Below, piece after piece: positions 1,268 through 36,937 of a stretch of 64,000 bases of DNA. The position numbers and the translations under genes are program-made. The stretch spans positions 1 through 64,000 of the forward strand of contig CAXHJY010001213.1 of the NCBI GenBank assembly GCA_964016885.1. The letters run 5' to 3'. The notes under the pieces were generated by a model. It made no database searches. It was not told the origin of the DNA and worked only from the letters and a program-made list of their open reading frames with translations. The first letter of the stretch is position 1; every line of letters starts with the position of its first letter. This stretch comes from Eledone cirrhosa (Eukaryota).

Positions 1268-1306
<39 letters not shown>

Positions 1307-1487: not shown

Positions 1488-1536
<49 letters not shown>

Positions 1537-2180: not shown

Positions 2181-2225
<45 letters not shown>

Positions 2226-2580: not shown

Positions 2581-2639
<59 letters not shown>

Positions 2640-2890
2640 TATACACACATACATTCATACATATATATATATAGATACCCACACACTCATACCACCATAA
2701 ATACACATACAAACACCCACATATACATATATATACACACGTATATATATATATATATATATACACACACATAAAAAACAGACATGCACAAATATATATA
2801 TTTTTTTACACTTATATATACACATATTATATACACATACACAACCTCACATATACACACATACACATAAGTTATATTATAATAATAAAA

Positions 2891-2931
<41 letters not shown>

Positions 2932-3023
2932 CATCTATATATATATATATATATATACATATAAACATATACATACATATATACACACATACGAATATAG
3001 ACATATATTCACACATAGACACC

Positions 3024-3057
<34 letters not shown>

Positions 3058-5318: not shown

Positions 5319-5474
5319 TATTCTTGGTAGATTTATCTACATAATTTTGCTCCTACTTTCACGGAAATATTCGTATTTTTGTACTGTATGTGTGTATTAA
5401 TTTTATATTTATGTATATACATATATATATGTATGATTTTGTAAACCCATATACATTTAGTTGAGCTCTTTCAA

Positions 5475-7937
5475 TTGTCCATCATCCATATCACAATGGA
5501 AAAACAATATTTAGGAACCTCCTTAAAAAACATACCAATACCTTCTAAGGATGACTTCTTACTCCTTATGATTCAGAAAACTAATAATTTTATCAGAAGG
5601 GTTAGATGGAGAGCCTACCACTTCGATAGAAAATCTAAACAAGCAGATCGGAAATATATGTATGATTTCAATACTTACAAGAATCCACCACACAACTTTT
5701 TACTTGAAGACTTCGAGAAAGACCTTTTTAATTTAATTAAACACCTCAAATTTAAAAAGTATAAATCCGTCTTTCAAAAGGACCTTGATTCTACCCTATT
5801 GGACCTAAAAAAGTCTAAAAAAATCCATGTCCACTCGGACAAAACTGGTAACTTGTATCATATGGATATTGAACATTATAACGAGTTCATATATAAAGAA
5901 CTCAGAAAAAATTATAAAAAATCTAATAATGTGTCACTCACCAACATCAACAACAAAACACACAACATAGTAAAAAAACTAAACATTGAAGATAGAACTG
6001 AACCTTTGGCATTGAAAAGACCACACTTCAACCTGAAAGATCACAAATCTAACTTTAACTCAAATCCTTCTATTAGACTTATATGTCCCTCCAAATCAGA
6101 TATTGGAATAATTAGCAAAAAAATTTTAGATAGAGTCATCCCACAAATAAGAAAACACGTTATTTTACCACTCTGGGAAAACACCTCCCAGGTAATTAAC
6201 TGGTTTAAAAATATTAGGTGTAAATCTTCTGCTTCTTTCCTACAATTTGATATAGATAATTACTATTCTTCTATATCACCTATACTCCTGAACAAAGCAT
6301 TGATATTTGCTAAAAATAGATCTAACTTAACTTTGGATGACATTAATATTATTACACATGCTAGACTAACACTTATTGAATTTCAGAATGAATACTGGAC
6401 CAGAAACACATATAGTAATCTTTTTGATATTACTATGGGTTCAAGCGATTCCGCCCAAATTACTGATCTTGTGGGCCTCTTTCTCCTTTTCAACATAAAT
6501 GCCTCTTTTCCCCACCTCAAAGGTGGTTTATATCGTGATGACTGTCTTCTTCTTTCTAACAACCTTAGCCTTTCAGAAATTGAAAAAAACAAAAAACATA
6601 TTAGAACTTTCCTTAAAGACTATTATAATCTTAATATTACTTTTGAAAAAACAAGTAAAGTAGTAAATTTCCTAGATATAACTTTAGATTTAGCTACGGG
6701 TATCTACCAACCTTACCATAAACCTAACCAAAACTTACATTACATACACTCACAATCTAATCACCCTAAATCTATCCTTAAAAACCTTGCATATAATATA
6801 TCACTTAGAATTTCTAACCTTTCTTCTAACCAAGATGTATTTGATAAAAATGCGACCTTCTATAACGAAGCTCTAGATAGAAGTGGCCACAAAAATAGAT
6901 TAGAGTATATACCTTCTACTAAAAATACTGAAAGCATACAACATAATATTACCAACAAACACCAAATGAAAAGTACACACCTAAATGCCACCCACACTAT
7001 ACCCCAAAATACCAAATCTTCTAATATAAAGTATAGTAACTCTCAAAAAACTACTCATCATACAACTCTAATAAATATTAATAATAAAACTCCTAATAAA
7101 AAGGATAAAACACCTAAATCTACAAATATAACTAAAAATAGTTGTGGTGAGATCATTAACATTAATCCTCCTAGTAAAAATCACGATACAACCTATAAAA
7201 ATAATAAAAATAATAAACAACATAGAAACCGTAATAGACGGGTTACTTGGTATAATGCTCCTTTTAATTTACAAGTTAAGGATAATATTGCTAAAAAATT
7301 TTTTTATATCCTTGAGAAAAACTTCCCGCCAAACCACAAATACCATCAAATCTTAAATAGGTCTACAGTTAAATTCTCATACTCTACAACAAATAACATA
7401 AAACAAAATATAAGTGCATATAATACATATAAATGTAAGAAAACCATAAGTATACCACCAGTACATCAAATTAACCATAATATCTCCTCAAATACAGAAT
7501 TAACGAAAGGATGTAACTGTAGAAACAAAGCAAACTGCCCATTAAAAGGGAATTGTCTTGTTAACAACATAGTCTATAAATGTAATGTTAAAACTAAAGA
7601 TTCTATTTGCTCATATATAGGAGCTACCTCTAACAATTTGAAGACAAGGTTTAATACCCACAAGCATAGTTTTAAAAATGCCGCACTGGCTAATACAACA
7701 TCTCTAGCAGAAAAAATCAATAGTTATAAAAATAAGAATATAGAATATGATTTGACCTGGAGTGTGCTCAAAAGAGCCACCCCTTATCAAAATAATAGAA
7801 ATGAATGTAGATTATGTTCCCAAGAACTATTTGAAATAATGAAATCTAAGGATATCTTATTAAATAAACGACAGGAATTAATTATATCGTGTAATCATAA
7901 ACTAAAAAAAACATTTAAATATTATAAACCTAATTAA
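5475..7937 (+). CDS. PLE polyprotein: reverse transcriptase + Cys-rich linker + GIY-YIG endonuclease (first ATG at 5496)
   Basis: SLKNIPIP, RVRWRA, HSDKTGN (DKT), FDIDNYYSSI, TMGS..A, LYRDD (RT catalytic), CNCR..CPLKGNCL, IVYKC..YIGAT...KTRFNTH (GIY-YIG), CRLCSQE..LNKRQE..CNH. Uninterrupted 820-aa frame. Confidence 0.93.
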   Translation: MSIIHITMEKQYLGTSLKNIPIPSKDDFLLLMIQKTNNFIRRVRWRAYHFDRKSKQADRKYMYDFNTYKNPPHNFLLEDFEKDLFNLIKHLKFKKYKSVFQKDLDSTLLDLKKSKKIHVHSDKTGNLYHMDIEHYNEFIYKELRKNYKKSNNVSLTNINNKTHNIVKKLNIEDRTEPLALKRPHFNLKDHKSNFNSNPSIRLICPSKSDIGIISKKILDRVIPQIRKHVILPLWENTSQVINWFKNIRCKSSASFLQFDIDNYYSSISPILLNKALIFAKNRSNLTLDDINIITHARLTLIEFQNEYWTRNTYSNLFDITMGSSDSAQITDLVGLFLLFNINASFPHLKGGLYRDDCLLLSNNLSLSEIEKNKKHIRTFLKDYYNLNITFEKTSKVVNFLDITLDLATGIYQPYHKPNQNLHYIHSQSNHPKSILKNLAYNISLRISNLSSNQDVFDKNATFYNEALDRSGHKNRLEYIPSTKNTESIQHNITNKHQMKSTHLNATHTIPQNTKSSNIKYSNSQKTTHHTTLININNKTPNKKDKTPKSTNITKNSCGEIININPPSKNHDTTYKNNKNNKQHRNRNRRVTWYNAPFNLQVKDNIAKKFFYILEKNFPPNHKYHQILNRSTVKFSYSTTNNIKQNISAYNTYKCKKTISIPPVHQINHNISSNTELTKGCNCRNKANCPLKGNCLVNNIVYKCNVKTKDSICSYIGATSNNLKTRFNTHKHSFKNAALANTTSLAEKINSYKNKNIEYDLTWSVLKRATPYQNNRNECRLCSQELFEIMKSKDILLNKRQELIISCNHKLKKTFKYYKPN

Positions 7938-8400
7938 TAACATTATTTTAGAAATTAATTTAATTTAAATGTTAGTTAACCTATAAATTTAATTTAATTA
8001 AAATTTTATTACAGATGAGAATATAAAATATTATGTAATCATAAATTGTGAAAAACCTTTAAATATTACTAATATATACTTAGTAATTTAATTTATAGAT
8101 TAATTTTAATTTATTTAAACCTTTTATTATAATTCTTTTACAGATAAAATATAACAAAATAATATCGTGTATCCAATGACAGAGAAATAATTTTTAGTAT
8201 TATAGACCTAATTAATATACATTTTAGAAATATATTTATAATTTGGTTTTAATTTTAATCAACATAAAAATTTAATTTTAATTTGCTTAAAATTAGTATC
8301 CTTATACAGACGAATTGCAGAATGTCATGTAATCATAGAATGGGATGTGTTTTGGATATATACCTAGTTAATATATTCTATGCAATTTTTTTGAAAAAGA
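7884..8400 (+). repeat. Degenerate ~135-160 bp tandem repeat starting in the last codons of the PLE ORF
   Basis: ATATCGTGTAATCATAAA-like anchors at 7884, 8028, 8162 and 8322, with AAACCTAATTAATA-like motifs following at least three of them. Confidence 0.6.
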
Positions 8401-9578
8401 TATGTATATGTGTACGTGTATGTGTGTGTGTATGTATATGTGTATATATGTATATATATATATATGTGTATATATATGTATATATGTATGTGTATGTATA
8501 TGTATATGTATATGTATTAGTTTTGATTTCTATTTGCATATAATTATATTATGCTATTGATAAAATACAATATCTGCTTTATGTATTATATACCTAATTA
8601 ACATATACTATAGAAATAAATATATAATTTTTAATTTAGTTAACCTATAATTTATATTCTACTACCGATGTAATACTTTATTTTATTTGTTTTTTCCCTA
8701 TTACTAAATTCATTTCCTAATATTGATACCATAACGTTATTAACTTTAATTTAGCTATACTATAATTAATACTCTACTACTATTTAACTTCAAAATTCTG
8801 CTTCAAATATTATAAACCTAACTAATTTACACCTTAGAAATCAATATGTTAACTATCTTTGGTTTAGTTAACATATAATTAATGGTATACTTGTTTATTT
8901 TGAGATGCATAGATTTTGCCTTAGTTCTTGTTTGTTGTATTTCCTAACACTGAAACTATGTAAAAACATACATTGGATAAAGATACGGAAAATATTCTAT
9001 GTTTCTTGAAACATATATTTACTATGATCCCCTTCTCCAAACCCCCCCTTTCCCCCATACTATTATCATCTGTATTTGTAAGCGTGTATGTATGAATATA
9101 TATGTAGGTAGGTGTCTATATAGGTTTGGGTATTTATATCTAAATATAAAAATACATATATGCGCATGCAAATATGAATGTAAGATTGTGTGTGTATATA
9201 TGAGTGTGTGTATGTATGTATATATGTGTATATATGCATGTATATATGTATGTGTATGTGAATGTGTGTATGTATATGTGTATGTATATATATATATATG
9301 TATATGTATGTATATATGTATATATAGGAATATATATATGTATATATATATATATGTATATGTATATGTGTGTGTATGTATGTGTGTGTATGTGTGTTGT
9401 ATATATATGTATGTCTCTCTATTTATATGTCTATCTTCGTATCTATGTGATATATGTGTGTGTGTGTGCATGTATGCACATATATGTGTTTATGTGTATA
9501 TATGTGTATGTGTGTATATATGTGTGTGTGCACACACACATATATATGTGAGTGTGTATATGTGTCTGTGTATATGTA

Positions 9579-9620
<42 letters not shown>

Positions 9621-9710
9621 TGTCTATGTGTGAATATATGTCTATATTCGTATGTGTGTATATATGTATGTATATGTTTATATGTATATATATATATATA
9701 TATATAGATG

Positions 9711-9753
<43 letters not shown>

Positions 9754-9872
9754 TTTTATTATTATAATATAACTTATGTGTATGTGTGTATATGTGAGGT
9801 TGTGTATGTGTATATAATATGTGTATATATAAGTGTAAAAAAATATATATATTTGTGCATGTCTGTTTTTTA

Positions 9873-9900
<28 letters not shown>

Positions 9901-9904
<4 letters not shown>

Positions 9905-10140
9905 CGTGTGTATATATATGTATATGTGGGTGTTTGTATGTGTATTTATGGTGGTATGAGTGTGTGGGTATCTATATATATATATGTATGAATGTATGTG
10001 TGTATATATATGTATATATATATACGTGTGTATATATATGTATATGTGGGTGTTTGTATGTGTATTTATGGTGGTATGAGTGTGTGGGTATCTATATATA
10101 TATATGTATGAATGTATGTGTGTATATATATGTATATATA
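9901..10140. repeat. 120-bp tandem duplication present only in the right arm of the palindrome
   Basis: 9901-10020 equals 10021-10140. The left arm (~2640-2760) has a single copy. Confidence 0.85.
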
Positions 10141-10171
10141 TATACTGTATATATATATGTATATATATATA

Positions 10172-10385
10172 CTGCTGTTGGAGATGCTACTCATCATGCT
10201 TGCCAAACATGTGGTAGAGAATGTAAATCAGCAGGAGGACTCAAGCGACATGCAAAAGTACACGAACTCCAACCACAGCCGACTATTCCCAGTAAATGTT
10301 TTGGTTGCCGACTCTGTGCAAGACATTTTGGATCATTGGCTGGGCTAAAAAGCCACATTCGATCGCAGCACTGTTAGTTGCTATC

Positions 10386-10425
<40 letters not shown>

Positions 10426-10942
10426 GCTTATGTGCGTGCGTGTGTGTGTATATATATATGAATATGTATATTATTATTGTTGTTGTCGTTATTATTATTA
10501 TTGCTATTATTATTGTTATTGTTATTCCTTGAATCTCAGTCATTGATGTTGGTTAACTGGAAAGTCCGTTGGATTGAATATCAAGCCACTACCTGCAGCC
10601 TCAGATATTCAGGACGTATCGGAGGGTTCTTGCCGTTCCAAGCAAGCATGCCTTTTGAAGCGTTCCAAAAAGCGTGAAGGGGCCGATTTTCTTTAACCAT
10701 CCCTGGAAACCTTTGGAGATAGTCCCCAGTGCGCCTATGACAATCGGGATCACTTTGACTTCATGGCAGTTCCAAATCCTTTTCACCTCCCACTTTAGGT
10801 CCTGGTATCGGTTAATTTTCTCCCTCTCCTTCTCTTGCACTCTCGTGTCGAACGGGCAGGCCACATCCACAATCAGGCACGATCTTTTTTCTTTGTCCAC
10901 AACCACCAGGTCAGGTCTATTGTGTTCCAGTTTTTTGTCCGC

Positions 10943-10991
<49 letters not shown>

Positions 10992-11046
10992 TTTTTTTTT
11001 TTTTTTTTTTTATTGTGCAATGGCCATACTCGATAACGAGGGGGCA

Positions 11047-11053
<7 letters not shown>
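10172..11053 (+). mobile_element. 5'-truncated RTE LINE copy (same family as 13333-17716)
   Basis: 10172-10377 encodes AVGDATHHACQTC...KSHIRSQHC, nearly identical to the RTE C-terminus. It shares the 3' UTR and the terminal tag TTGTGCAATGGCCATACTC..GCAGCCATCA before (TA)n. Confidence 0.92.
10527..10942 (-). mobile_element. R4/Dong-clade non-LTR retrotransposon 3' fragment (RLE endonuclease) inserted in (TAA)n
   Basis: HNRPDLVVVDK..IVDVACPFD...EK..RYQDL...VIPIVIGALG...LQKACLLGTAR is an RLE (PD..D) C-terminus. It is flanked by (TTA)n tracts. Confidence 0.85.
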
Positions 11054-11100
<47 letters not shown>

Positions 11101-11457
11101 ATATATATATATCTATTAATGCGTGTATATATGTATATACATATGCCTTTTTATTATTATTTTTATTTGTATGTCTGAGTTAGGTGAGGTTGTAGTGGTG
11201 TTTTTATGTATATACGCATATATGGATGCGTATGTATTTGTATATATGAGTATAAGTAAGTGCATATGTATATATGATTATATATCTAATTCTATGTATG
11301 AATATACATGTATATATATGTATGTATGTAAGTTGTGTGTGTATGTATGTATATGTCTATGTGTGTGTATATATATATGTATGTATATCGATGTACGTGT
11401 ATGTATGTACAAGTATGTCTATGTATGTGTGTATGTATGTGTATGTATATTTATGTG

Positions 11458-11504
<47 letters not shown>

Positions 11505-11805
11505 ATATATATATGTATATATCTTTATTATTTATTTTTTATATATATGTGTATGTGTGTATATGTTGTGCGTGTGTGTGTGTGTGTGTATATATATCTT
11601 TATATATGTGTATGTGTATGTTCGTGTAGGTGTATGTGTGTATATGACTTTATATGTATGTGTGTATGTGTGTATGCGTAAATATTTCTATGTGTGTGTA
11701 CATGTATGTATGTGTGTATATGTGTATGTGTGTGTATGTGTATAAGTATGTGTATATGTATATATATATATATATATATGTTATATATATATATGTATAT
11801 GTATA

Positions 11806-11836
<31 letters not shown>

Positions 11837-12152
11837 CTATATGTTTTTCTATTTGTATATGTATGTGTGTATAGGTATATACCTTTCTCTTTGTATTTCT
11901 AAGTTGTGTGATAGTGTAGTGGTGTTTGTATGTATATACCGATATATAGATGCGTAAGTATTTGTCTGTATGTATATATGTAAGTCTGTATATATTTGTG
12001 TGTATATATAGCTATGTATGTGTATATCTGTATGTATATTAGTATGTAAGTCTTGTATATGTGCATGTATGTGTGTGGTTATATATATCTGTGTCTATAT
12101 AGTATGTGTGATTATATGTATATGTGTGTGTATATGTACGTGTATATACATA

Positions 12153-12211
<59 letters not shown>

Positions 12212-13091
12212 GTGTATTTGTATGTATATGTGTATATGTATGTGTGTATATGTATATGTTTATATATATGTGTGTATGTATGTTCTTAGTGTGGATGTGT
12301 GTATATGTATGTATGTGTTTGTATATGTGTGTATATTTATGTATGTGTGTGTGTGTGTCTATGTGTATATATATGTATATTATATATATATATGTGTGTG
12401 TATATATATATATATATATATGTATGTGTATATATGTATATATATATATTTATTTTCTTGATATATTTCTTTTTTCTTTTTTCTTTTTTCTGTTTTCTTT
12501 CTATTCTTTCCTCTTTAATGTTTATTTATTATTTTTTATTTTCTTAGTTTATAGATACATCTATATTAGGCAGTCTGCTCAGACCGTTGAATACTGACCT
12601 CTCCCCCCCCCTCCCACCTAATTTCTGTATCTTGATCTAAAAATGTGTGTGCCAGTGTTTTATGTGAGTGAATTAATATCCATGTGCTTATGATTTTATA
12701 TCCACATATATAAATGTGAGTGGGGGTGTGTGTGTGTTTGTATGTTCGTGGTTATGTGTATATTTATGCATATACGCGCGTGTATGTGTGATTGTACGGA
12801 TATGTGTGAGTATGAAAAAATATATTTATATACTTAATTTCATAAGTGTCAATACGCATCTTATCTGTGCATTATAAACTTACAGAGACATTAACCTTGA
12901 AATTTTGTATTTGCATCCATCCTTTTAGTATGCGTATACAAATTATACATACATTTTTGTAAAATATGTGTAAGGGTTTTACATGTATATACACACACCG
13001 AACTGCATTTAACCCTTTGTGTTTTCATTGGTCAATTTTGTTCCCAAACGGACCTGAAATTTTGAATTGTTGTTATTATCAATAAATATAC

Positions 13092-13245
13092 TTCATTATT
13101 TCTGAAGACGGCGTATATATGTGTTGGTATGTATATTTAATCTTGATAATTTGTATAATTTTGTATAATTTTGTACATAGATCTGTTGAATATGCATACC
13201 AATTCTAACACATATATATCCTAGAAACGATCGTTAAATAATGAA
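13092..13245 (+). ncRNA. Type I hammerhead ribozyme motif (family A) with very long stem II
   Basis: Stem I TTCATTATTT/AAATAATGAA (10 bp). CTGAAGA at 13102. Stem II domain of ~115 nt (TATATATGTGTT/AACACATATATA; GGTATGTATATT/AATATGCATACC). GAAA at 13224. Palindromic stem III ACGATCGT. GUU triplet. Confidence 0.75.
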
Positions 13246-13290
13246 CTTTTTTTGTTTAATATAAAGAATTGTTTATTCATTATTTGTTTA

Positions 13291-13328
<38 letters not shown>

Positions 13329-13785: not shown

Positions 13786-16700
13786 GATAGCAACTAACAG
13801 TGCTGCGATCGAATGTGGCTTTTTAGCCCAGCCAATGATCTAAAATGTCTTGCACAGAGTCGGCAACCAAAACATTTACTGGGAATAGTCGGCTGTGGTT
13901 GGAGTTCGTGTACTTTTGCATGTCGCTTGAGTCCTCCTGCTGATTTACATTCTCTACCACATGTTTGGCAAGCATGATGAGTAGCATCTCCAACAGCAGC
14001 CTGGTAGTCAACCACTGGTCTTACTTTATGACTGCGAAGATGACTTTCGAGTCCAGCTTTGCTTAGGCAGAGTCTCGCACAGACGCTGCATGTCAGAAAC
14101 ATAGGAGGACCCTCGCCGTCTGGAAGTGCAACAGCAATACCCTTCCTCACGTCCCGCTTTACTTTCTCGTGTGCGATTCGAGATGCCTCAAAGGCAACTT
14201 TTCCCTCATATACAGTCTTTCTCCATTTATTACGATCAGCAGCAATATTTTCCCATGTATCAGCAGAGATGTTAGCGTCTTTCAGAGAGGCCTTCAAGGA
14301 ATCCTTATACCTCTTTTTTGGTTTATGTGGCGGTCGTTTTCCTTTAACCAACTCTCCATAGAAGAGTTGTTTTGGTATTCTAGAATCCTTCATCCTGGCA
14401 AGGTGACCACTCCAACGGAGTCGCTGCTTAAGCACAAGAGCTTCTATACTGTCACACATAGAGCTTTCCAAAATCTCGACATCACTGATGTGGTCCCTCC
14501 AGCGAACGCCATGTATCCGTCTGAGACACATCTGATGGAAACGCTCCAATTGCTTAAGGTGGCGTCGATATGTGACCCAGGTCTCGCAGGCATAAAGAAG
14601 ACAAGAGAGTACACATGCCCTGTACACCTTTACCTTTGTCCTCCTGCATATGTCTCGCCGACCCCAGAGTCGCCTTTCTAGCTTTCCGAAAGCATCACTT
14701 GCTTTCCTAATCCTAAGTGAGATCTCACTGTCAAGGTTGCCGTATCGATTGACAGTGCTTCCCAGGTAGACAAACTGATCAACCACTCCAAGTCGTTTGC
14801 CATACACATAGATGTTTGGTTCAGTGTACTGCCTACCAGGTGCAGGTTGGTACATGACGACGGTTTTCTTGAGACTGACAGTCAAACCCAGGGCAGTGCA
14901 AGCGTCAGAAAATACATTCAAAATGTGCTGCATATCACTCTCTGTGTGCGCTACAAGATCGCAATCATCTGCATACAAGAGGTCTCTTATGACTGATGTA
15001 AATACTTTTGTCTTCGCAGCAAAGCGCCTGATGTTAAATATGCTGCCTGAGGTTCGATATCGGATGTAAACACCATGCTCGCAATTCCTGAATGCAATAC
15101 AGAAAACCATTGCAAAGTATATGGCAAACAGGGTCGGTGCTGGAATATCCCCCTGTTTCACTCCATTTTTTACTGAGATAGGCTCCGACATGCTACCTCC
15201 GACATTAACCCAAGCCTTCATGTCGTCATGGAAAGACCTAACTAAAGCAAGGAACTTATCAGGGCAACCAAGTTTCTGGAGAACCTTCCATAATGCATCT
15301 CTGTTGACAGTATCGAAAGCCTTTGTCAGATCGACAAAAACCTGATACAGATCCAAGCCCTGTTCAATGCACTTCTCCTGGAGCTGTCTAGCTGAGAAGA
15401 TCATATCAGTAGTGCCGCGTCCAACACGAAAACCAGATTGACTTTCAGGAAGGACACAATCTGCAATGTGTGTCAGCAGACGGTCCAGAAGCACCCTACA
15501 TAAAACTTTCCCCACGACAGAAAGCAATGATATACCTCTGTAGTTCCCACAATCATTCCTGTTACCCTTTCCCTTGTACAAGACCACCATTACTGCATCT
15601 CTCCAGTCCTCAGGCACGGATTCATTAGCCCATATCCTTCCAAACAGAGAGTGAAGATGTTGCAGGAGTCTCTCACCACCATATTGTAGGAGCTCAGCAT
15701 GTATGCCATCCATACCTGGAGATCTTCCACTGTTCAGCTTCGAAATAGCCACTGCAACCTCCACAAGTGTCGGAGGTTCTGCGAGAGCTACTTTCACAGG
15801 ACTTTCCGGAATGAGATTGAGGAAATCTTCACTGACGACAGACGGCTGATTCAAAAGATCATCAAAGTGCTCTCGCCACCTTCGTAGAATTCCCTGTGAG
15901 TCACGAAGAAGTTCTTTGCCATCCTTGCTGCGAATCGGTGTCACCAGAGAAGAAGACGGTCCATAAACCTCACGCAAGAGACTGTACAACAGCTTTGTGT
16001 TATTGCAATCAGACGCAGTTTGTATCTCACCAGCCTTCTCACTCCACCACTGATCCTTCATCTGAGAAAGACTCCGCCTAACACGTGATTTTACATCCCT
16101 GAGCTCCTCATGCAACGTATTCCTCTCCTGTGGTCTTGCCGTCAAGTAGCGTGACAGAGCGCGCCTCTTATCAGCCAACAAGTCATCTATATGCACATCC
16201 TTCTCATCAAACCAGTCCTGATGTTTTCTCTGCACCAATCCCAGAACACGTCTGCCTACATCATAAACCGACTTTTTAAGAGTCGGCCAATCCTCACCAA
16301 GATCTGCAGCCTGCATCTCTTCTTCCAATGTCCTCTTCACATTTTTATCCTTAAGACGAGCAGCATTCAATCTTTTGGGCAGGGCAACACCAGGAGCCCG
16401 GATTTTACGTTTGGTGATTAGATTCACTTTTGCGCGTACCAGGCGGTGGTCCGTCCAGCACTCAGCTCCACGAAGAACACGAACACACTGCACATCCTGT
16501 CTGTCACGCATCCTGACTAGGACGTAGTCCAAAAGATGCCATTCCTTAGATGCAGGATGCATCCATGTGGTCTTGAATTTGTTCTTTTGTTGGAACATGG
16601 TGCTGGTAACACACAGATCCAGCTCCTCACACATCTGCAGCAAGAGCATACCATTGCTGTTACACTTTCCCACCCCATGCCTTCCGATTACATTCCATGT

Positions 16701-17378
16701 GTTAAAATCCCTACCCACTCTAGCATTAAAGTCACCAAGCACGATGACTTTGTCTGCCTGAGGGATATTTCTTAAAACACCTTTCAAGGCATGGTAAAAG
16801 GACAGTTTTTCTTCATCGACAGAATTCATAGTTGGAGCATACACACTCACCAGGGTAGCATATCTTCCCTTGTCCAGCGGAACTCTCATGGACATAAGAC
16901 GCTCACTAATCCCCACTGGGAATTCTTCCAATTTATTCACCAGTACAGTCTTAACAGCAAATCCCACCCCAGCCTCTCTTCTGGTTCCTTCATCTCTTCC
17001 TTTCCAGAAGAATGTATATTCTCCACAAAATTCCGTAAGATGACCATCTCCAGCTAACCTCGTCTCAGACAAAGCCACGATGTCAAGATCGTAACGTCGA
17101 AGCTCCTTCGCAACAAGAGCGGTCCTTCGTTCAGGACGCTCCAAAGAATCCCTGTCAAGCAGCGTCCGTACGTTCCAGCAGCCAAGACTAAATGCCCTGT
17201 TTGGCTCTATTACAATGGCACGATGACGGGCGGGCCCAGGTTGTGATAACTTGGGGCCCCTGCCCTTATTGCCAATGATCTCTTTTGTTCCAGAACCCAA
17301 ATTGGCAATTATCTCGTTTACATTGTTCTGGAACATCATTGAATTGGAAAAAAAAAAAAAAAAAAAAAAGTAATAATA

Positions 17379-17413
<35 letters not shown>

Positions 17414-19839: not shown

Positions 19840-19844
<5 letters not shown>

Positions 19845-19968
19845 AACAAGTAAGACCCCGACGGCTGAGCTCAAGCCGTTTCGACGGATAATTCTGACAG
19901 AGTTAGCCGTCGAAACGGCTTGAGCTCAGCCGTCGGTGTCTTGTTCCTATTACCCACTCTACTACCCT
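19840..19968. repeat. Fold-back of a 5'-truncated hammerhead (3' half only)
   Basis: Inverted repeat 19840-19950 centred on the hairpin GACGGATAATTCT/AGAGTTAGCCGTC. The right arm reads GAAA-CGGCT(loop)AGCCG-TC. Confidence 0.7.
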
Positions 19969-20038: not shown

Positions 20039-20426
20039 AAGAGGAATTCCAACTTTGTCTGATTTACTCGTTTTATTTACAATCCTTTCAAATATATAAT
20101 GGTATTATAATGAAATAGTATGATAGAATATTAAATTCTAAGTGTTAATTGAACAAGTACTTTCATGCTTTCGCAATCTTCAGGTTCATAAGATGTGGTG
20201 ACAGTCGAGTTTGCAATTTTCAACTGTTGAAATTTTTACAGTTGAAAATTGCAAACTCGACTGTCACCACATATCATGAACCTGAAGATTGCGAAAGCAT
20301 GAAAGTACTTGTTCAATTAACATTTAGAATTTAATATTCTATCATACTATTTCATTATAATACCATTATATATTTTAAAGGATTGTAAATAAAACGAGTA
20401 AATCAGACAAAGTTGGAATTCCTCTT
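20039..20426. mobile_element. ~390-bp near-perfect fold-back of an HHR-bearing pLTR-like fragment (family C)
   Basis: Arms AAGAGGAATTCC...CAACTGT and ACAGTTG...GGAATTCCTCTT, centre near 20232. One HHR per arm. Confidence 0.85.
20277..20315 (+). ncRNA. Minimal type I hammerhead ribozyme (family C); mirror copy at 20150-20188 on -
   Basis: TGAAC-CTGAAGA-T TGC GAAA GCA T-GAAA-GTAC-TT-GTTCA. Stem I 5 bp, GNRA-capped stem II, palindromic stem III AGTACT. Confidence 0.8.
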
Positions 20427-20513
20427 ATTAATATATATATATATATATACATACATATATATATATATATATATACATACATATATATATATATATATAT
20501 ACATATATATACA

Positions 20514-21258
20514 TGTAGATAAATCTACCAAAAGTTTACGGTAGTGTCCAATCCGTATGAAGAACTCAATGTAATCCGGATATCATGGAAAGAAGAGATG
20601 CATTCAAAAATCACTTTCGGTGAAAGATAAACGGAATACAGAATCAAGATAAAATATTAAAAAAATAATGAATAAAACAATGAAACAGTTCCTTATATTA
20701 AAAAAAAAAAGTTCATTATTTAACGATCGTTTCTAGGACATATATGTGTTAGAATTGGCATGCATATTCAACAGATCTATGTACAAAATTATACAAAATT
20801 ATGCAAACTATCAAATAGAATATACATACCAACACATACATATGCCGTCTTCAGAAATAATGAAATATATTTATTGATAATAACAACAATTCAAAATTAC
20901 AGGTCTGTTTGGGAACAGAGTTCAAATAGACCAATGAAATACACAAAAATATATCAAGAAAATACAGTTAGGTGTGTGTATATATGTAAGTAACTTCGTC
21001 CAAAGATATGCATAAAAATGTATGTTCACATGCATACGCATGTCGAAAAAATGTATGTAAATACAAAAATTCAGGGCTAATGTCTCTGTATGTTTATAAT
21101 CTACAGACAAAATACACATACGTATACATACATATATACACTCATATATACACACATATACATACATATATACACTCATATATACACACATATACATACA
21201 TTCATACACACACACACGCATATACACATAAACATACACATACCCACGAACATACACA

Positions 21259-21331
<73 letters not shown>

Positions 21332-21561
21332 GTATATATTATTATTATAACTATATGGATATTGAGGCGCACACATAAATACTGCAACATATACTTACAT
21401 CTAGATGCAGAACTAAAAATAGGTAAAGGGAGTCAGTAATTACAGAGGGTGTCAGACAACAGCCTATTTATAAAAATGTATCTATAAATTTAGAAATAAA
21501 AAGAAATATATTAAAAGAAATAAACAAGTAAAATATATACTCATACATAAAATACACACCG

Positions 21562-21636
<75 letters not shown>

Positions 21637-22039
21637 TATAGAGAGACATATACATATACATATATAAACATACACATACACACATACATATATATATACA
21701 TGTACTCACAACACACATATATATACACATATATGTACACACACATACACACATACATACACATACATATATATATATACACACATATATATACACATAT
21801 ATATATACACACATATATATATACATACACGCACATATATATACACACACACACATACATATACGTATATATACATACACATACACATATACATGTATAT
21901 ATATACACATACAACCCCACGCTCACACACAACTCAGACGTACATAAATATAGAGATATACATACACACATATATATATATATATAGATATATACATACA
22001 TATAAATATATATACACACACATACATACACACACACAT

Positions 22040-22089
<50 letters not shown>

Positions 22090-24080
22090 ATAAATAAATA
22101 CACACAGTCAGACAATTATGCGCATATATACACATACATACACACATCTCTACAAATATATATACACATACACATACATACACACACATATATATACATA
22201 TATATATATACAATCATACACACTTATTTACATGCGCACATATGTATTTTTATACTCACATACAAACACCCAAACATACATACATACTTACATACACATA
22301 CATACATCCACGCTTACAAATACGAATAATTATAGGGGGGGGGGGAAGGGGATTAAAATTATTAGTGGGAAATAGTAAATATAGGTTTCAAGGAACATAG
22401 AATATTAATCTGCATTTAGATCATAATATGTGTTTACATAGTAGTTTCAGTATTAGGAAATGTAAGAAAGAAGGCAAAATTATGCATTTTAATATAAGTA
22501 GACTATTAATTATAGGTTAACTAAATTAAAAATAGTTAATATATTGATTTCTAAGGTGTATACTACTTAGGTTTATAATATTTAAAGCGGAATTTTGAAG
22601 TTAAACAGTAGTAGAGTATTAATTATAGCATAACTAAATTAAAAATATTAACATTATGGTATCAATTTTAGGAAATGAATTTAGTAATAGGGAAAACCAA
22701 ATCAAGTATTTCATCGGTAGTAGCATATAAATTATAGGTTAACTAAACTAAAAATTATATATTAATTTCTATAGTATATGTTAATTAGGTTTATAATAAT
22801 TAAAGCAGATTTTGTATTTTATCTATAGTAGAATATAATTATAGGTTAACAAAAATTAAAATTAATCTATATATTTATTTGTAAAGAATATATTAATTAG
22901 GTATATATTTAAAAGTTTTTCTCAGTTTATGATTACATGATATTCTGCAATCCATCTGTATTAGAATTTTAATTTTAAGCTAACTAAATTAAAATTATAG
23001 GTTAATTAAATTAAAATTAATTTATAAATTAATTTCTAAATTGTACATTAATTAGGTTTATAATATTAAAAAGTATTTCTCTGTTATTGATTACACGATA
23101 TTTTGTTATATTTCATCTGTAAAGGAATTTTAATAAAAGGTTAAATAAACTAAAATTAATCTATAAATTAATTTCCAAAGTATATATTAATTATGTTAAT
23201 AATATTTAAAAGTTTTTCACAATTTATGATTACACAATATTTTTTTAATCTCATCTGTAGTAGAATTTTAATTAAATTAAAGTTATAGGTTAACTACATT
23301 TAAATTAAATTATATATTAATTTCTAAAATATATATTATTAATTAGGTTTATAATATTTAAATGTTTTTCTCAGTTTATGATTACACGATATAATTAATT
23401 CCTGTCGCTTATTTAATAGGATATCCTTAGATTTCATTATTTCAAATAGTTCTTGGGAACACAATCTACATTCATTTCTATTATTTTGATAAGGGGTGGC
23501 TCTTTTGAGCACACTCCAGGTCATATCATATTCTATATTCTTATTTCTATAACTATTAATTTTTTCTGCTAGAGATGTTGTATTAGCCAGTGCGGCATTT
23601 TTAAAAAAACTATGTTTGTGGGTATTAAACCTTACCTTAAAATTGTTAGAAGTAGCTCCGATATATGAGCAAATAGAATCTTTAGTTTTAACTTTACATT
23701 TATAAACTATGTTGTTAACAAGACAATTTCCTTTTAATGGGCAGTTTGCTTTGTTTCTACAGTTACAACCTTTCGTTAATTCTGTATTTGAGGAGATATT
23801 ATGGTTAGTTTGATGTATTGGTGGTATACTTATGGTTTTTTTACATTTATATGCATTATAGGCACTTATATTTTGTTTTATGTTTTTGGTTGTTGAGTAT
23901 GAGAATTTAACTGTTGATCTATTTAAGATTTGATGGTATTTGTGGTTTGGCGGGAAGTTTTTCTCTAGGATATAAACAAATTTTTTAGCAATATTATCCT
24001 TAATTTGTAAATTAAATGGAGCATTATACCAAGTAACTCGTCTATTACGGTTTCTATGTTGTTTATTATTTTTATAGGTT
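20514..24080 (-). mobile_element. Diverged 5'-truncated third copy of the Naiad-type PLE (GIY-YIG + 3' UTR + HHR)
   Basis: 23339-24080 encodes a near-identical GIY-YIG region. It has the same 3' terminus (TGTAGATAAATCTACC on +) abutting (TA)n. Confidence 0.92.
20712..20864 (-). ncRNA. Type I hammerhead ribozyme motif (family A, third copy)
   Basis: Core CTGAAGA, GAAACGATCGTT and the 10-bp stem I are identical to the other two copies, while stem II carries substitutions. Confidence 0.72.
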
Positions 24081-24134
24081 ATACATACATATATATATAT
24101 ACATATATATATACATATATATATATATACATAC

Positions 24135-24172
<38 letters not shown>

Positions 24173-24268
24173 CTATATATACATATATATATATACATAC
24201 ATATATATACATATATATATATATACATATATATACATATATATATACATACATATATATATATATAT

Positions 24269-24299
<31 letters not shown>

Positions 24300-24366
24300 C
24301 ATATATATACATATATATATACATACATATATATATATATATACATACATATATATACATATATAT

Positions 24367-24407
<41 letters not shown>

Positions 24408-24424
24408 CATATATATATATATAT

Positions 24425-24479
<55 letters not shown>

Positions 24480-24480
24480 C

Positions 24481-27400
24481 ATATAGACATAGAATATTCG
24501 AAAATATTCTGTATGTTTATAATAAACATTTTGAAGACCTAATCGCTATAGAATAGAATACGTCACGTATTACAATTAGATTCTCGATAAAAGCAAGGGA
24601 AGTAATCTACGCGTTTCATTCTCGTTAGAAATCATCAGGACTACATATCCAGTGCTTTTATCGAGAATGACACAGCTAGAGACTTATAGAATACTTAGCT
24701 GTGTACAGGAACTGGTTTGAAAGAGCGGTTGCCGGTCCGGCAGAAATTAGAAATTGGAATAAATGCTCTGAAATAGCGATATATATGTGAATATAGACAT
24801 AGAATATTCGAAAATATTCTGTATGTTTATAATAAACATTTTGAAGACCTAATCGCTATAGAATAGAATACGTCACGTATTACAATTAGATTCTCGATAA
24901 AAGCAAGGGAAGTAATCTACGCGTTTCATTCTCGTTAGAAATCATCAGGACTACATATCCAGTGCTTTTATCGAGAATGACACAGCTAGAGACTTATAGA
25001 ATACTTAGCTGTGTACAGGAACTGGTTTGAAAGAGCGGTTGCCGGTCCGGCAGAAATTAGAAATTGGAATAAATGCTCTGAAATAGCGATATATATGTGA
25101 ATATAGACATAGAATATTCGAAAATATTCTGTATGTTTATAATAAACATTTTGAAGACCTAATCGCTATAGAATAGAATACGTCACGTATTACAATTAGA
25201 TTCTCGATAAAAGCAAGGGAAGTAATCTACGCGTTTCATTCTCGTTAGAAATCATCAGGACTACATATCCAGTGCTTTTATCGAGAATGACACAGCTAGA
25301 GACTTATAGAATACTTAGCTGTGTACAGGAACTGGTTTGAAAGAGCGGTTGCCGGTCCGGCAGAAATTAGAAATTGGAATAAATGCTCTGAAATAGCGAT
25401 ATATATGTGAATATAGACATAGAATATTCGAAAATATTCTGTATGTTTATAATAAACATTTTGAAGACCTAATCGCTATAGAATAGAATACGTCACGTAT
25501 TACAATTAGATTCTCGATAAAAGCAAGGGAAGTAATCTACGCGTTTCATTCTCGTTAGAAATCATCAGGACTACATATCCAGTGCTTTTATCGAGAATGA
25601 CACAGCTAGAGACTTATAGAATACTTAGCTGTGTACAGGAACTGGTTTGAAAGAGCGGTTGCCGGTCCGGCAGAAATTAGAAATTGGAATAAATGCTCTG
25701 AAATAGCGATATATATGTGAATATAGACATAGAATATTCGAAAATATTCTGTATGTTTATAATAAACATTTTGAAGACCTAATCGCTATAGAATAGAATA
25801 CGTCACGTATTACAATTAGATTCTCGATAAAAGCAAGGGAAGTAATCTACGCGTTTCATTCTCGTTAGAAATCATCAGGACTACATATCCAGTGCTTTTA
25901 TCGAGAATGACACAGCTAGAGACTTATAGAATACTTAGCTGTGTACAGGAACTGGTTTGAAAGAGCGGTTGCCGGTCCGGCAGAAATTAGAAATTGGAAT
26001 AAATGCTCTGAAATAGCGATATATATGTGAATATAGACATAGAATATTCGAAAATATTCTGTATGTTTATAATAAACATTTTGAAGACCTAATCGCTATA
26101 GAATAGAATACGTCACGTATTACAATTAGATTCTCGATAAAAGCAAGGGAAGTAATCTACGCGTTTCATTCTCGTTAGAAATCATCAGGACTACATATCC
26201 AGTGCTTTTATCGAGAATGACACAGCTAGAGACTTATAGAATACTTAGCTGTGTACAGGAACTGGTTTGAAAGAGCGGTTGCCGGTCCGGCAGAAATTAG
26301 AAATTGGAATAAATGCTCTGAAATAGCGATATATATGTGAATATAGATTAGGTCTTCAAAATGTTTATTATAAACATACAGAATATTTTCGAATATTCTA
26401 TGTCTATATTCACATATATATCGCTATTTCAGAGCATTTATTCCAATTTCTAATTTCTGCCGGACCGGCAACCGCTCTTTCAAACCAGTTCCTGTACACA
26501 GCTAAGTATTCTATAAGTCTCTAGCTGTGTCATTCTCGATAAAAGCACTGGATATGTAGTCCTGATGATTTCTAACGAGAATGAAACGCGTAGATTACTT
26601 CCCTTGCTTTTATCGAGAATCTAATTGTAATACGTGACGTATTCTATTCTATAGCGATTAGGTCTTCAAAATGTTTATTATAAACATACAGAATATTTTC
26701 GAATATTCTATGTCTATATTCACATATATATCGCTATTTCAGAGCATTTATTCCAATTTCTAATTTCTGCCGGACCGGCAACCGCTCTTTCAAACCAGTT
26801 CCTGTACACAGCTAAGTATTCTATAAGTCTCTAGCTGTGTCATTCTCGATAAAAGCACTGGATATGTAGTCCTGATGATTTCTAACGAGAATGAAACGCG
26901 TAGATTACTTCCCTTGCTTTTATCGAGAATCTAATTGTAATACGTGACGTATTCTATTCTATAGCGATTAGGTCTTCAAAATGTTTATTATAAACATACA
27001 GAATATTTTCGAATATTCTATGTCTATATTCACATATATATCGCTATTTCAGAGCATTTATTCCAATTTCTAATTTCTGCCGGACCGGCAACCGCTCTTT
27101 CAAACCAGTTCCTGTACACAGCTAAGTATTCTATAAGTCTCTAGCTGTGTCATTCTCGATAAAAGCACTGGATATGTAGTCCTGATGATTTCTAACGAGA
27201 ATGAAACGCGTAGATTACTTCCCTTGCTTTTATCGAGAATCTAATTGTAATACGTGACGTATTCTATTCTATAGCGATTAGGTCTTCAAAATGTTTATTA
27301 TAAACATACAGAATATTTTCGAATATTCTATGTCTATATTCACATATATATCGCTATTTCAGAGCATTTATTCCAATTTCTAATTTCTGCCGGACCGGCA

Positions 27401-29242
27401 ACCGCTCTTTCAAACCAGTTCCTGTACACAGCTAAGTATTCTATAAGTCTCTAGCTGTGTCATTCTCGATAAAAGCACTGGATATGTAGTCCTGATGATT
27501 TCTAACGAGAATGAAACGCGTAGATTACTTCCCTTGCTTTTATCGAGAATCTAATTGTAATACGTGACGTATTCTATTCTATAGCGATTAGGTCTTCAAA
27601 ATGTTTATTATAAACATACAGAATATTTTCGAATATTCTATGTCTATATTCACATATATATCGCTATTTCAGAGCATTTATTCCAATTTCTAATTTCTGC
27701 CGGACCGGCAACCGCTCTTTCAAACCAGTTCCTGTACACAGCTAAGTATTCTATAAGTCTCTAGCTGTGTCATTCTCGATAAAAGCACTGGATATGTAGT
27801 CCTGATGATTTCTAACGAGAATGAAACGCGTAGATTACTTCCCTTGCTTTTATCGAGAATCTAATTGTAATACGTGACGTATTCTATTCTATAGCGATTA
27901 GGTCTTCAAAATGTTTATTATAAACATACAGAATATTTTCGAATATTCTATGTCTATATTCACATATATATCGCTATTTCAGAGCATTTATTCCAATTTC
28001 TAATTTCTGCCGGACCGGCAACCGCTCTTTCAAACCAGTTCCTGTACACAGCTAAGTATTCTATAAGTCTCTAGCTGTGTCATTCTCGATAAAAGCACTG
28101 GATATGTAGTCCTGATGATTTCTAACGAGAATGAAACGCGTAGATTACTTCCCTTGCTTTTATCGAGAATCTAATTGTAATACGTGACGTATTCTATTCT
28201 ATAGCGATTAGGTCTTCAAAATGTTTATTATAAACATACAGAATATTTTCGAATATTCTATGTCTATATTCACATATATATCGCTATTTCAGAGCATTTA
28301 TTCCAATTTCTAATTTCTGCCGGACCGGCAACCGCTCTTTCAAACCAGTTCCTGTACACAGCTAAGTATTCTATAAGTCTCTAGCTGTGTCATTCTCGAT
28401 AAAAGCACTGGATATGTAGTCCTGATGATTTCTAACGAGAATGAAACGCGTAGATTACTTCCCTTGCTTTTATCGAGAATCTAATTGTAATACGTGACGT
28501 ATTCTATTCTATAGCGATTAGGTCTTCAAAATGTTTATTATAAACATACAGAATATTTTCGAATATTCTATGTCTATATTCACATATATATCGCTATTTC
28601 AGAGCATTTATTCCAATTTCTAATTTCTGCCGGACCGGCAACCGCTCTTTCAAACCAGTTCCTGTACACAGCTAAGTATTCTATAAGTCTCTAGCTGTGT
28701 CATTCTCGATAAAAGCACTGGATATGTAGTCCTGATGATTTCTAACGAGAATGAAACGCGTAGATTACTTCCCTTGCTTTTATCGAGAATCTAATTGTAA
28801 TACGTGACGTATTCTATTCTATAGCGATTAGGTCTTCAAAATGTTTATTATAAACATACAGAATATTTTCGAATATTCTATGTCTATATTCACATATATA
28901 TCGCTATTTCAGAGCATTTATTCCAATTTCTAATTTCTGCCGGACCGGCAACCGCTCTTTCAAACCAGTTCCTGTACACAGCTAAGTATTCTATAAGTCT
29001 CTAGCTGTGTCATTCTCGATAAAAGCACTGGATATGTAGTCCTGATGATTTCTAACGAGAATGAAACGCGTAGATTACTTCCCTTGCTTTTATCGAGAAT
29101 CTAATTGTAATACGTGACGTATTCTATTCTATAGCGATTAGGTCTTCAAAATGTTTATTATAAACATACAGAATATTTTCGAATATTCTATGTCTATATT
29201 CACATATATATCGCTATTTCAGAGCATTTATTCCAATTTCTA
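24481..29242. repeat. 310-bp tandem array with internal inversion at 26346-26347; one HHR per unit (non-LTR retrozyme-like)
   Basis: Unit starts at 24481, 24791, 25101, 25411, 25721 and 26031 (HHR on -). About 9.3 units follow in the opposite orientation (HHR cores at 26562+310n up to 29042). Units look identical by eye. Confidence 0.95.
26532..26620 (+). ncRNA. Type I hammerhead ribozyme (family B), representative of 15 copies
   Basis: GTAGTC-CTGATGA-T TTCT AACG AGAA T-GAAA-CGCG-TA-GATTAC. Distal stem I ATTCTCGATAAAAGCA/TGCTTTTATCGAGAAT (16 bp) lies beyond an internal loop. Predicted GUA cleavage after 26592. Confidence 0.88.
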
Positions 29243-29346
29243 TATACATATATATATACATACATATATATATACATACATATATATATACATACATATA
29301 TATATACATACATATATATATACATACATATATATATACATACATA

Positions 29347-29385
<39 letters not shown>

Positions 29386-29431
29386 GCATACATACATATA
29401 TATATATACATATATATATATGCATACATAC

Positions 29432-29479
<48 letters not shown>

Positions 29480-29489
29480 GCATACATAC

Positions 29490-29556
<67 letters not shown>

Positions 29557-30092
29557 GGGATAGCGACCAAAAGTTTACCCTAAAATGGGAAAAATTAGCT
29601 AAAACCCAAAGCTTTTCCAGGAGCCAAAATTTCTGCAAATTGTGTAATCTTGAGATTTATTACATAATCACACACAAGAAGAAACTGCTGAATAACAGAA
29701 TTGAACGAACATTATTCTGCCGTCACAGAACTAAAACCCTTTTTTCCCACTACAAGCCGAATATTACATAAAAGAGGGACATCCCCCAACTATATAAACC
29801 TTAATCTAGTTAGAAAAATATAAAAACAATCTCTTCTCAACATATATTAATAACCTTAAATTACCATACTAATAATGAAAAGATATGCTGATGAGAATAG
29901 ATACAAATATGCGAGAATGAATGTGTCTAAAAACGTCCATAAGTATGTATATATATGTGAAAATGTATATAAATAAGTAAATATATATATATGTTTGATG
30001 TGTATAGTTAGATGTAAGTGTATTCATGTATTAAAGTGCTTATATATATATATGTATGTATATATGTGTATATGTATGTGTATGTATATATG

Positions 30093-30167
<75 letters not shown>

Positions 30168-30884
30168 ATGTATGTATATATGTGTATATGGATGTGTAAG
30201 TATGTGTATGTGTGTACACATGGACTAGAGTATGTATGTATATATGAGTGTGTCTATACGTGTGTATATAAAGATAAGTTGAGTATGAAAATGTATACAC
30301 ATGAGCGCGTATGTATGTATATGAATACATGTGTGTATATAAAAGTGTATGCATGTGTATATATATGTAAGTATGAATATGTGAATTGTGAGTATATGTA
30401 TTTTGTAGAGGTGTGCAAATATATTTGTGTGTGAATGCGTGGGTGAAAGGATACGTACACTTGAAAGAAAAATTTAAGTCTGAATGTTAATTAAGTGCAA
30501 ACACAAAACCAACCACGCATATCTTTACTATCTCTAATCCTTCTATAGATTTAGAAAAATAACCAATAATATATTCTATAAAAAATGTCAAAACAACAGA
30601 TGGGAATCTAATTACTCACTGCCACCAAGAATTCTCACTGCTATCGAAAAACCACTCCTTCAACTATTCTTCTAACAACTTCACCCCTCCCTCCTAATAT
30701 TCTCTATAAAAACTAAATAGGTCCTCAGTAATATTATTCTGATGAAATGACAGTAAATAATAACATTGAAATATTGAATGTCTGCATAACTAAAAGTTTG
30801 TAGATAGCTGTTTTAGGTTATGTAACTGTTATAGAAACACGTGTCAATAAATTCCTTTCAACTAAACTGTATCCATTCAAATCT

Positions 30885-30887
<3 letters not shown>
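29557..30887 (+). mobile_element. 3' fragment of a second, distinct Naiad-type PLE family
   Basis: 29557-29771 encodes [10 protein letters not shown]...CKLCNLE...LLNNRIE...CRHR, homologous to the C-terminus of the 5475 ORF. A microsatellite-rich 3' region follows and ends in (TA)n. The right boundary is approximate. Confidence 0.75.
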
Positions 30888-30953
<66 letters not shown>

Positions 30954-36039: not shown

Positions 36040-36937
36040 TTTACAATAGATTATAACTTTGTCTATTAATTTGTAAGGTGAGCAAATGGGGTCCCACGTG
36101 CTGGCATCCCCACATCCCCTGCGGACAAGATGAAGAAGGTATTTCTCCGGCGGTTGGTAAGGGAGATGCGCTGGAAGAGCCATTCCAACTCGCGAGGCTC
36201 ACACCTGCGGCTGGCCATCTCAGCACCTATGGTGGTGAATAGGGAGGTAGCCCTAGGGCCAAGGACACCAGAAGTCTCCACTGCCAAGGGCACGACCGCG
36301 AACCTATCGGAGAGTGACCGGTACTTGGAGAGTTTGGCCTCCTCAGCCCGACGTGCAGCAGTACCTGGGTTAGTCGCAGACTGCACCAGCTTGCGGCTCG
36401 AGAAAGTGTCGCTGCAACTGGCATCCCAGACGAGCGATTTGCCACCGCGGAACGGGAAGATGGTCATACCGTCTGGCCTTTTGCCATCCCTCGGTCGAGC
36501 CCCACCGACTCGAGCTGGGAGGGGAAGTCTGCAGCGTCCAAGCCATGCTTATTGACCCCGTTGAGTGCAGCATGACGTAGAAAGCGGCCGGCACTGTGGT
36601 GACAGGAAAGCGAGTGGAAGCCGAAAGAGTCCACGGTGGATCCACAGCGACATTTATGTGGCTTGCAGATCCGGAGTCCAAACCTCAAGAAAACGCCGAT
36701 GCGCAAGGCATGGAGCAAGGCATGGAGCCAGGCACCACTGTGGGGTTTGGAGGCAGCGCGAAAACAGGCAAGGCGGTGCTGGTCGAGCTGGCGCGTGAGC
36801 CTGTCTGAGGCCAGGCTGCACTGGATGGCATCCCATACGCGTTGGGGGAGAAGGAGGAGGGACGTCTACTGGGGTAAGTCCCAGCCTGTCCCACGTCTCA
36901 TAGGCGACCTCACGCTCCCTGAACACAGAGGGTTCTA
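36040..36937 (-). pseudogene. CRE-clade non-LTR retrotransposon 3' fragment (zinc knuckle + RLE), frameshifted
   Basis: CRCGSTVDSFGFHSLSC, RHAALN, MTIFPFRGGKSLVWDASC, PLAVETSG. Paralogous to 59093-60635. Confidence 0.85.

Follow-up and report, generated by a model that had tools for sequence, protein, structure and literature searches.

Metazoan non-long-terminal-repeat (non-LTR) retrozymes are described as tandem arrays of low-GC units of 150-450 bp, each with a type I hammerhead ribozyme and a palindromic stem III, and without an open reading frame (ORF) (PMC7229834; 10.64898/2026.07.22.740005). Two routes by which such animal hammerhead repeats enter DNA have been proposed, each by one paper and, in the text of each, shown by neither. 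The first is tandem complementary DNA (cDNA) copied round a circular RNA, with the reverse transcriptase (RT) of Penelope-like elements (PLEs) as the candidate enzyme (Cervera and de la Pena 2020, PMC7229834), and the second is local amplification after PLE insertion, which is favoured by Li et al. 2026 (10.64898/2026.07.22.740005). Circles are also proposed as templates in PMC4209133. Here, we analyse a 310-bp hammerhead array in a 64,000-nucleotide stretch of the Eledone cirrhosa genome (contig CAXHJY010001213.1, positions 1 to 64,000; hereafter the window), together with the family to which it belongs. The array is very probably a retrozyme inserted by PLE machinery. For the family as a whole, we give a probability of roughly 0.6 to the reading in which the usual template of insertion would have been a monomer circle.

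Judged by its sequence features, the 310-bp family belongs to the metazoan non-LTR retrozymes: it has a type I hammerhead in each unit of 310 bp, a G+C content below 50% and no protein, and it is dispersed over many loci. Nevertheless, there are distinct differences. The first is its architecture of head-to-head arms with two fixed outer ends, and the second is the U.U at positions 10.1/11.1 of its ribozyme. The word 'inverted' is absent from the main text of the 2020 paper (PMC7229834), and the 2026 text has it a single time, within the title of a reference, the supplements lying outside this comparison. A description of two-armed retrozyme arrays was not found in the literature covered, to which most subscription papers did not belong.

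PLE insertions carry an inverted 5'-truncated copy and a tail of 30-40 bp at one end, with a bias towards (TA)n (Craig et al., PMC8557442), and in vitro a PLE protein cuts and extends both strands from two start sites that bound the tail (Frangieh et al., PMC11167929). The 310-bp family resembles the PLEs with a C-terminal GIY-YIG domain in the inverted 5'-truncated arm, the 30-40 bp tail, the (TA)n target and two RT starts downstream of a hammerhead (PMC8557442, PMC11167929). It differs from PAc in that one of its outer ends, end A below, uses homology to the target (PMC11167929). Unlike PLEs, it has no RT or endonuclease, both of its arms are multimers of 310 nt, and it lacks homology to families A and B, the PLEs that flank it in the window.

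A further comparison is LINE-1 twin priming, in which both target ends prime on one RNA and the products are joined head-to-head with microhomology. The 310-bp family would share with it the priming of two ends on one RNA, and it shows the same kind of join. It differs in the absence of poly(A), in that both starts are fixed and internal, and in that its arms copy the same sequence repeatedly rather than adjacent parts of a linear RNA.

Layout of the array and extent of its family

Unit positions are numbered from the base after the predicted cut site (26593 = position 1). The array and its flanks are laid out as follows.

24080-24480, no strand: (TA)n-type target run, left flank.
24481-26347, minus strand: left arm, 6.02 units; type A outer (RNA 3') end at 24481, unit position 127, within the AU-rich tract; inner end at position 121.
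26346-26347, no strand: 2-nt GA microhomology at the head-to-head join.
26346-29242, plus strand: right arm, 9.35 units; inner end at position 64; type B outer end at 29242, position 170.
26532-26620, plus strand: one of the 15 type I hammerheads, with distal stem 26532-26547/26605-26620, stem I 26556-26561/26593-26598, core CTGATGA at 26562-26568, U.U at 10.1/11.1, stem III ACGCGT and predicted cut at 26592/26593.
26593-26902, plus strand: reference 310-nt monomer, cut site to cut site; predicted circular RNA.
29200-29242, plus strand: 'tail', unit positions 128-170, which the right outer end has and the left lacks (the family modes, 130 and 165, differ by 35 nt).
29243-29556, no strand: (TA)n-type target run, right flank.

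The left block matches the reverse complement of 6.02 units of 310 bp exactly and the right block holds 9.35 units, neither with a single mismatch at a lag of 310; Tandem Repeats Finder, run on the window, gave the same period. The two blocks stand head-to-head with GA as their overlap and carry 15 hammerhead cores (six minus, nine plus) across 15.4 units. The monomer has a G+C content of 34.5%, its longest stop-free stretch is 59 amino acids without a methionine, and the unit contains no ORF with RT and GIY-YIG. A sequence-only reading of this DNA had described an array of 15 hammerheads in six and about 9.3 opposed 310-bp units joined through GA at 26346, with units that appear identical, no ORF and (TA)n at both ends, and every one of these points holds.

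Array loci sampled from the genome are designated by L-numbers; 93 loci were analysed, comprising the window and sets of 69, 20 and 3. Before counting, 25 nt were trimmed at arm ends, and minor segments that represent older relatives or a complex join were dropped (the first of L062, the third of L091, the second and third of L042 and one in L109), L042 also being excluded from the join statistics. Genome-wide, the exact hammerhead core of the window subtype has 4,226 copies, and a 23-mer common to the subtypes has 16,534 matches, equivalent to at least 16,534 units. On the plus strand, 688 A-type and 756 B-type end patterns were found; with each end counted once, this corresponds to about 1,400-1,500 insertions. 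The array is therefore a member of a family with chromosome-scale spread and not a single locus. On sequence grounds, the 310-bp family is young, dispersed and non-coding.

Outer ends, inner joins and the Penelope-like footprint

All 75 two-armed arrays (59 + 14 + 2) are head-to-head, and 18 further loci showed one arm, among which L064 stops at an assembly gap and L119 at the edge of the retrieved sequence. The inversion noticed in the window is thus real, but it is the normal form of the family and not an oddity. Each of the 74 arrays with both ends visible has one end A (about 125-139) and one end B (163-172). This holds for 25/25 two-armed arrays picked independently of their ends (9 + 14 + 2) and for 17/17 picked by one end only, all of them head-to-head; the 31/31 picked by both ends also conform, although for these the result is circular, and the remaining array is that of the window. 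The modes of the outer ends lie at 130 (33/68) and 139 (19/68) for A and at 165 (39/60) for B, with 35 nt between 130 and 165. The sequence-only reading had looked to permuted ends as a mark of the family; these exist at the inner joins only. The outer ends occupy two fixed sites with about 35 nt between them, a feature suggestive of PLE machinery.

End A falls within the unit's own AU tract (131-139), which allows pairing with a (TA)n target; at end B, unit and target share only 1-2 nt. One-armed copies are mostly of type A (9/11 and 6/6 in two sets; a single further copy has its end near B), an indication that priming begins at A. The target of the family arrays is (TA)n, an exception being L199, which is inserted in AT-rich non-repeat DNA with an 11-nt flank duplication. 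An inverted arm, a tail at one end only and a (TA)n target, as expected of a PLE-type insertion, are all present.

The inner ends behave differently from these fixed sites. They are spread evenly over the unit (Rayleigh p 0.30 and 0.43), and only 2/116 lie near the cut site, against 4.1 expected. Among 58 joins, 39 are clean and 19 contain inserts, many of them templated from the unit, and 22 of the 39 clean joins show microhomology of at least 2 nt, where 18% would do so by chance (p 1e-7). At first A arms seemed to stop at whole laps, but 58 arrays did not bear this out. In L066, the arms are separated by 272 nt of unrelated GC-rich sequence, which was captured during joining or else inserted afterwards.

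The same two-armed footprint is shown by both coding PLE families that flank the array in the window:

264-13299, no strand: PLE family A, two-armed insertion in (TA)n; ORF 5496-7937 on the plus strand; outer ends 137 nt apart.
20513-24075, minus strand: PLE family A, 5'-truncated diverged copy, its truncated end against the left (TA)n.
29557-30890, plus strand: PLE family B, 5'-truncated fragment with the endonuclease C-terminus, the 3' region and a hammerhead-like core at 30740.

Family A is very young, with an ORF of 813 amino acids from the first ATG, a unit of 6,672 bp and 93 near-identical matches scored. Pfam returned no match for this ORF, which we take to be that of a PLE, partly from familiar motifs and from its order of RT followed by GIY-YIG. 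Family B is young, with a unit of about 3.55 kb and 2,481 hammerhead-like cores with a 14-nt loop 2; its outer ends, 115 nt apart, both lie upstream of the ATG. The two ends of families A (137 nt) and B (115 nt) matched exactly at 14 and 11 of 30 loci, respectively. Both families were considered as sequence parents of the retrozyme and rejected, as the 310-bp unit has no homology to either beyond AT repeats and their tails measure 137 and 115 nt.

The proposed RNA template of the insertions

The evidence on the template comes from variants shared among units. There are 27 haplotypes among 70 loci, and in 46/46 arrays with both arms longer than 360 nt the arms share their array-wide variants (in L074 partly), against an expected discordance of 86%. 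Fifteen variants are array-wide in a single sampled array each, and 12 of them span both arms. Three of the 15 were counted genome-wide. The first, 232T>C, occurs in ten units, namely 8/8 units of L091 and otherwise two singletons; it is private within this assembly and may have a source outside it. The second, 35G>T, occurs in 73 units and is array-wide in seven arrays on at least two backgrounds. The third, 210C>A, is considered below. Apart from these array-wide variants, 90 variants are confined to a single unit, and multi-unit variants are confined to long arms. No indel was found at the cut site in 852 passes.

The array-wide variants also carry a distinct signature. In the ribozyme sense, A>G accounts for 7/24 array-wide substitutions but only 4/69 singletons (Fisher p 0.006), and the array-wide A>G sites lie in predicted stems in 8/8 cases, compared with 42% of all A. 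Adenosine-to-inosine (A-to-I) editing prefers particular sequence contexts, a preference that we applied to 276A>G, which stands in a UAG context and recurs on three backgrounds. We read the array-wide A>G changes as probable A-to-I editing of the RNA template. The same variant is mosaic in L074 and in L077, where 11/12 units carry 276A>G, and these mosaics may reflect editing or the misreading of inosine during copying.

From these patterns, the following course of events can be proposed. The arrays would be transcribed, and the tandem hammerheads would cut as dimers, because stem III is a short palindrome; the monomers would then be ligated into circles. Transcription, self-cleavage and circularity of the 310-nt RNA are all predicted here from the sequence alone. 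As the end positions suggest, a PLE protein would nick both (TA)n strands; one 3' end would pair with the AU tract at 131-139 (end A), and the other would start at 163-172 almost without homology (end B). Each cDNA would run a variable number of laps round the same circle, as the haplotypes suggest. The two cDNA 3' ends would join anywhere, through 1-5 nt of complementarity or short inserts, as in the observed pattern of joins, and the head-to-head joined cDNAs would each template the other's second strand. Long arms can expand later in the DNA, as some have done.

A more specific version is possible, and we put it forward tentatively. An RT dimer might load on one 310-nt circle at two sites 35 nt apart, each RT displacing the cDNA of the other until the 3' ends anneal and are copied, with no second-strand primer. 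Each insertion would then be the clonal record of one RNA, including its A-to-I edits, and the family would be a viroid-like circle lineage archived in the genome.

Several observations weigh against a monomer circle as the usual template. Among the variants, 210C>A was sampled as 'private' and proved to be a subfamily of 327 units genome-wide. Indels make up 21/90 of the singletons and are possibly assembly errors. For the editing signature, the comparison of A>G with T>C alone is a weak strand test (7 to 3, p 0.10), and position 295, which lies in an unpaired loop, is probably another A>G. In L074, 276G is carried by all seven A-arm units but by only the inner 2/6 B-arm units. The lengths of the two arms are at best weakly correlated (rho 0.23, p 0.076). 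As regards the enzymes, a driver PLE for the 310-bp family was not found among families A and B, and the U.U at 10.1/11.1 may slow cleavage. Family A forms tandem arrays of 3-4 units elsewhere, and no canonical hammerhead was found in it, so that tandems need no ribozyme circles. By analogy, the in vitro work on PAc would also speak against a role for circles, as its ribozyme is dispensable for insertion and uncut RNA is the main substrate (PMC11167929).

The last two points are also what would be expected if PLE double priming took place on uncut linear multimeric transcripts of homogeneous arrays, with the ribozyme and circles incidental to insertion. This is the alternative that survives best, and we regard it as unlikely. 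In L060 (204C>T) and L092 (173T>C), the variant is present only in the outermost unit of both arms, a pattern that fits a linear multimer or conversion between arms. Moreover, 23/58 arrays are without singletons, which means that clean source arrays exist. On the other hand, new variants would be expected in single laps of a linear template, but they are array-wide in both arms, recurrent and in one case private. Only two lap-matched mosaics were seen, whereas about 25 would be expected from average arrays transcribed as linear templates; this expectation shrinks if only mutation-free arrays are sources. Retention of ribozyme covariation across 62-68% identity (see below) likewise argues against an incidental ribozyme. 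A minority of insertions probably does derive from uncut linear multimers. The sequence-only reading had proposed multimeric cDNA of a 310-nt circular RNA inserted from both sides of one break; the genomic tests favour this proposal, while L060 and L092 fit a linear multimer better.

It is improbable that the arrays began as short two-armed PLE-type insertions, with about one unit per arm, and later expanded in place by unequal exchange. Such expansion has been proposed for retrozyme tandems by Li, Clavereau and Pollet (10.64898/2026.07.22.740005), and it would also turn first-lap variants array-wide. DNA-level block duplications do occur in long arms (L087, L119, L050 and L066), in arms of more than about 11 units, and they count against the circle as the only source of tandems. 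However, arrays of up to 22 units lack any unit-specific mutation, singleton density does not rise with array length (rho -0.13, p 0.31), and the multi-unit variants that expansion would produce are found in long arms only. Hierarchical sharing of mutations among units, the mark of a satellite, was likewise limited to a few long arms. A continuous exponential with a mean of 5.1 units is compatible with the lengths of the arms (Kolmogorov-Smirnov p 0.16; p 0.035 without the two longest). Taken together, the evidence favours tandems that arose at insertion, through rolling-circle copying of one monomer circle by an RT, rather than through local amplification. The arms of L087 (45 units) and L119 (at least 32 units) show irregular multi-unit duplications and, from their sequence, may be retrozyme arms turning into satellites.

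Very doubtful is a cut linear monomer, its ends held by stem I, that is copied through repeated end-to-end template jumps. The predicted fold does set the 5' and 3' ends of the monomer side by side, and jumping would yield the same array-wide variants. RTs that jump between templates usually leave scars, but the cut site shows no indels and the inner ends are not piled up there. Finally, an ordinary satellite or an assembly fold-back artefact is a negligible prospect: the units are identical and the window lies on a 75-kb unplaced contig, but asymmetric A/B ends, unique joins and chromosome-scale dispersal at more than a thousand places already contradict it at the family level, as the sequence-only reading had supposed for a satellite, and a fold-back would put the same end on both sides.

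The family offers more than a thousand near-identical insertions with base-resolved starts, joins and inherited RNA variants. It also gives a defined 310-nt substrate with exact predictions for a PLE RT, namely starts at 130-139 and 163-172 and multi-lap cDNA, and it is relevant to the inverted copy and the tail of PLEs, both of which lack an explanation, as well as to PLE second-strand synthesis.

Ribozyme conservation and other elements

Folding bore out the type I hammerhead with a 16-bp distal stem and palindromic ACGCGT stem III seen in the sequence alone, and also the three extra hairpins, all of which form in the minimum-energy fold of the circle (z = -4.3, from a comparison with 100 dinucleotide shuffles). 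Stem I has 6 bp followed by an internal loop and the distal stem, stem II has 4 bp, and the cleavage triplet is GUA. Canonical type I ribozymes have a tertiary contact between loops 1 and 2; here, the internal loop in stem I adjoins the 4-nt loop 2. Stem II is closed by U.U at 10.1/11.1, where G-C is usual. A scan of the window with Rfam gave no matches at the gathering thresholds. Where stem III is a short palindrome, cleavage in the dimeric form is favoured, and natural PLE ribozymes are known to include U3-A8 variants (PMC4209133).

Relatives of the 310-nt unit with 62-68% identity are found at L033:4882-5195, L105:5153-5466, L193-L196 and L228:42-386. They have conserved blocks in common with the unit, in which one such block spans positions 141-153, and the same end positions where these are visible. 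In nine aligned relatives, positions 3-8 are C-G in six and U-A in three, and the remaining core is invariant except N7; four of five stem II pairs are altered on both sides in a compensatory manner, in a covariation set of nine related sequences whose kinship inflates the shuffle test. Covariation, including U3-A8, that is retained at 62-68% identity suggests that the hammerhead has been kept under selection. Some of these older relatives have U3-A8 cores, and they often lie in the same (TA)n runs as the 310-nt arrays. In the comparison with candidate driver PLEs, the relative in L228 proved to be a neighbouring insertion.

A much larger hammerhead repeat family with 26,782 cores is represented by L122-L151 (for example L150:1500-1531 and L134:1501-1531). 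Its periods are about 420-540 bp, with microsatellites within the units and opposed arms, and it has the U.U, an AAYA loop and GUA as in the 310-nt unit.

Comparison with a phage collection gave no match. Elsewhere in the window, a long interspersed nuclear element (LINE) at 13794-17411 on the minus strand has an open frame of 1,205 amino acids with an apurinic/apyrimidinic endonuclease, RT and C2H2 fingers, and the PLE carries at 10172-10526 an inserted 355-bp segment from the end of this LINE. Two related open frames lie at 36066-36548 (minus strand) and 59586-60635 (plus strand), the second without a Pfam match; they presumably represent the C-terminal region of a non-LTR element whose endonuclease is restriction-like. 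Two small perfect palindromes, at 19843-19947 and 20100-20420, stand between (TA)n runs, and both arms of the second contain a minimal hammerhead-like core (CTGAAGA, U.U, AGTACT). From their sequence, the two palindromes look like very short two-armed insertions.

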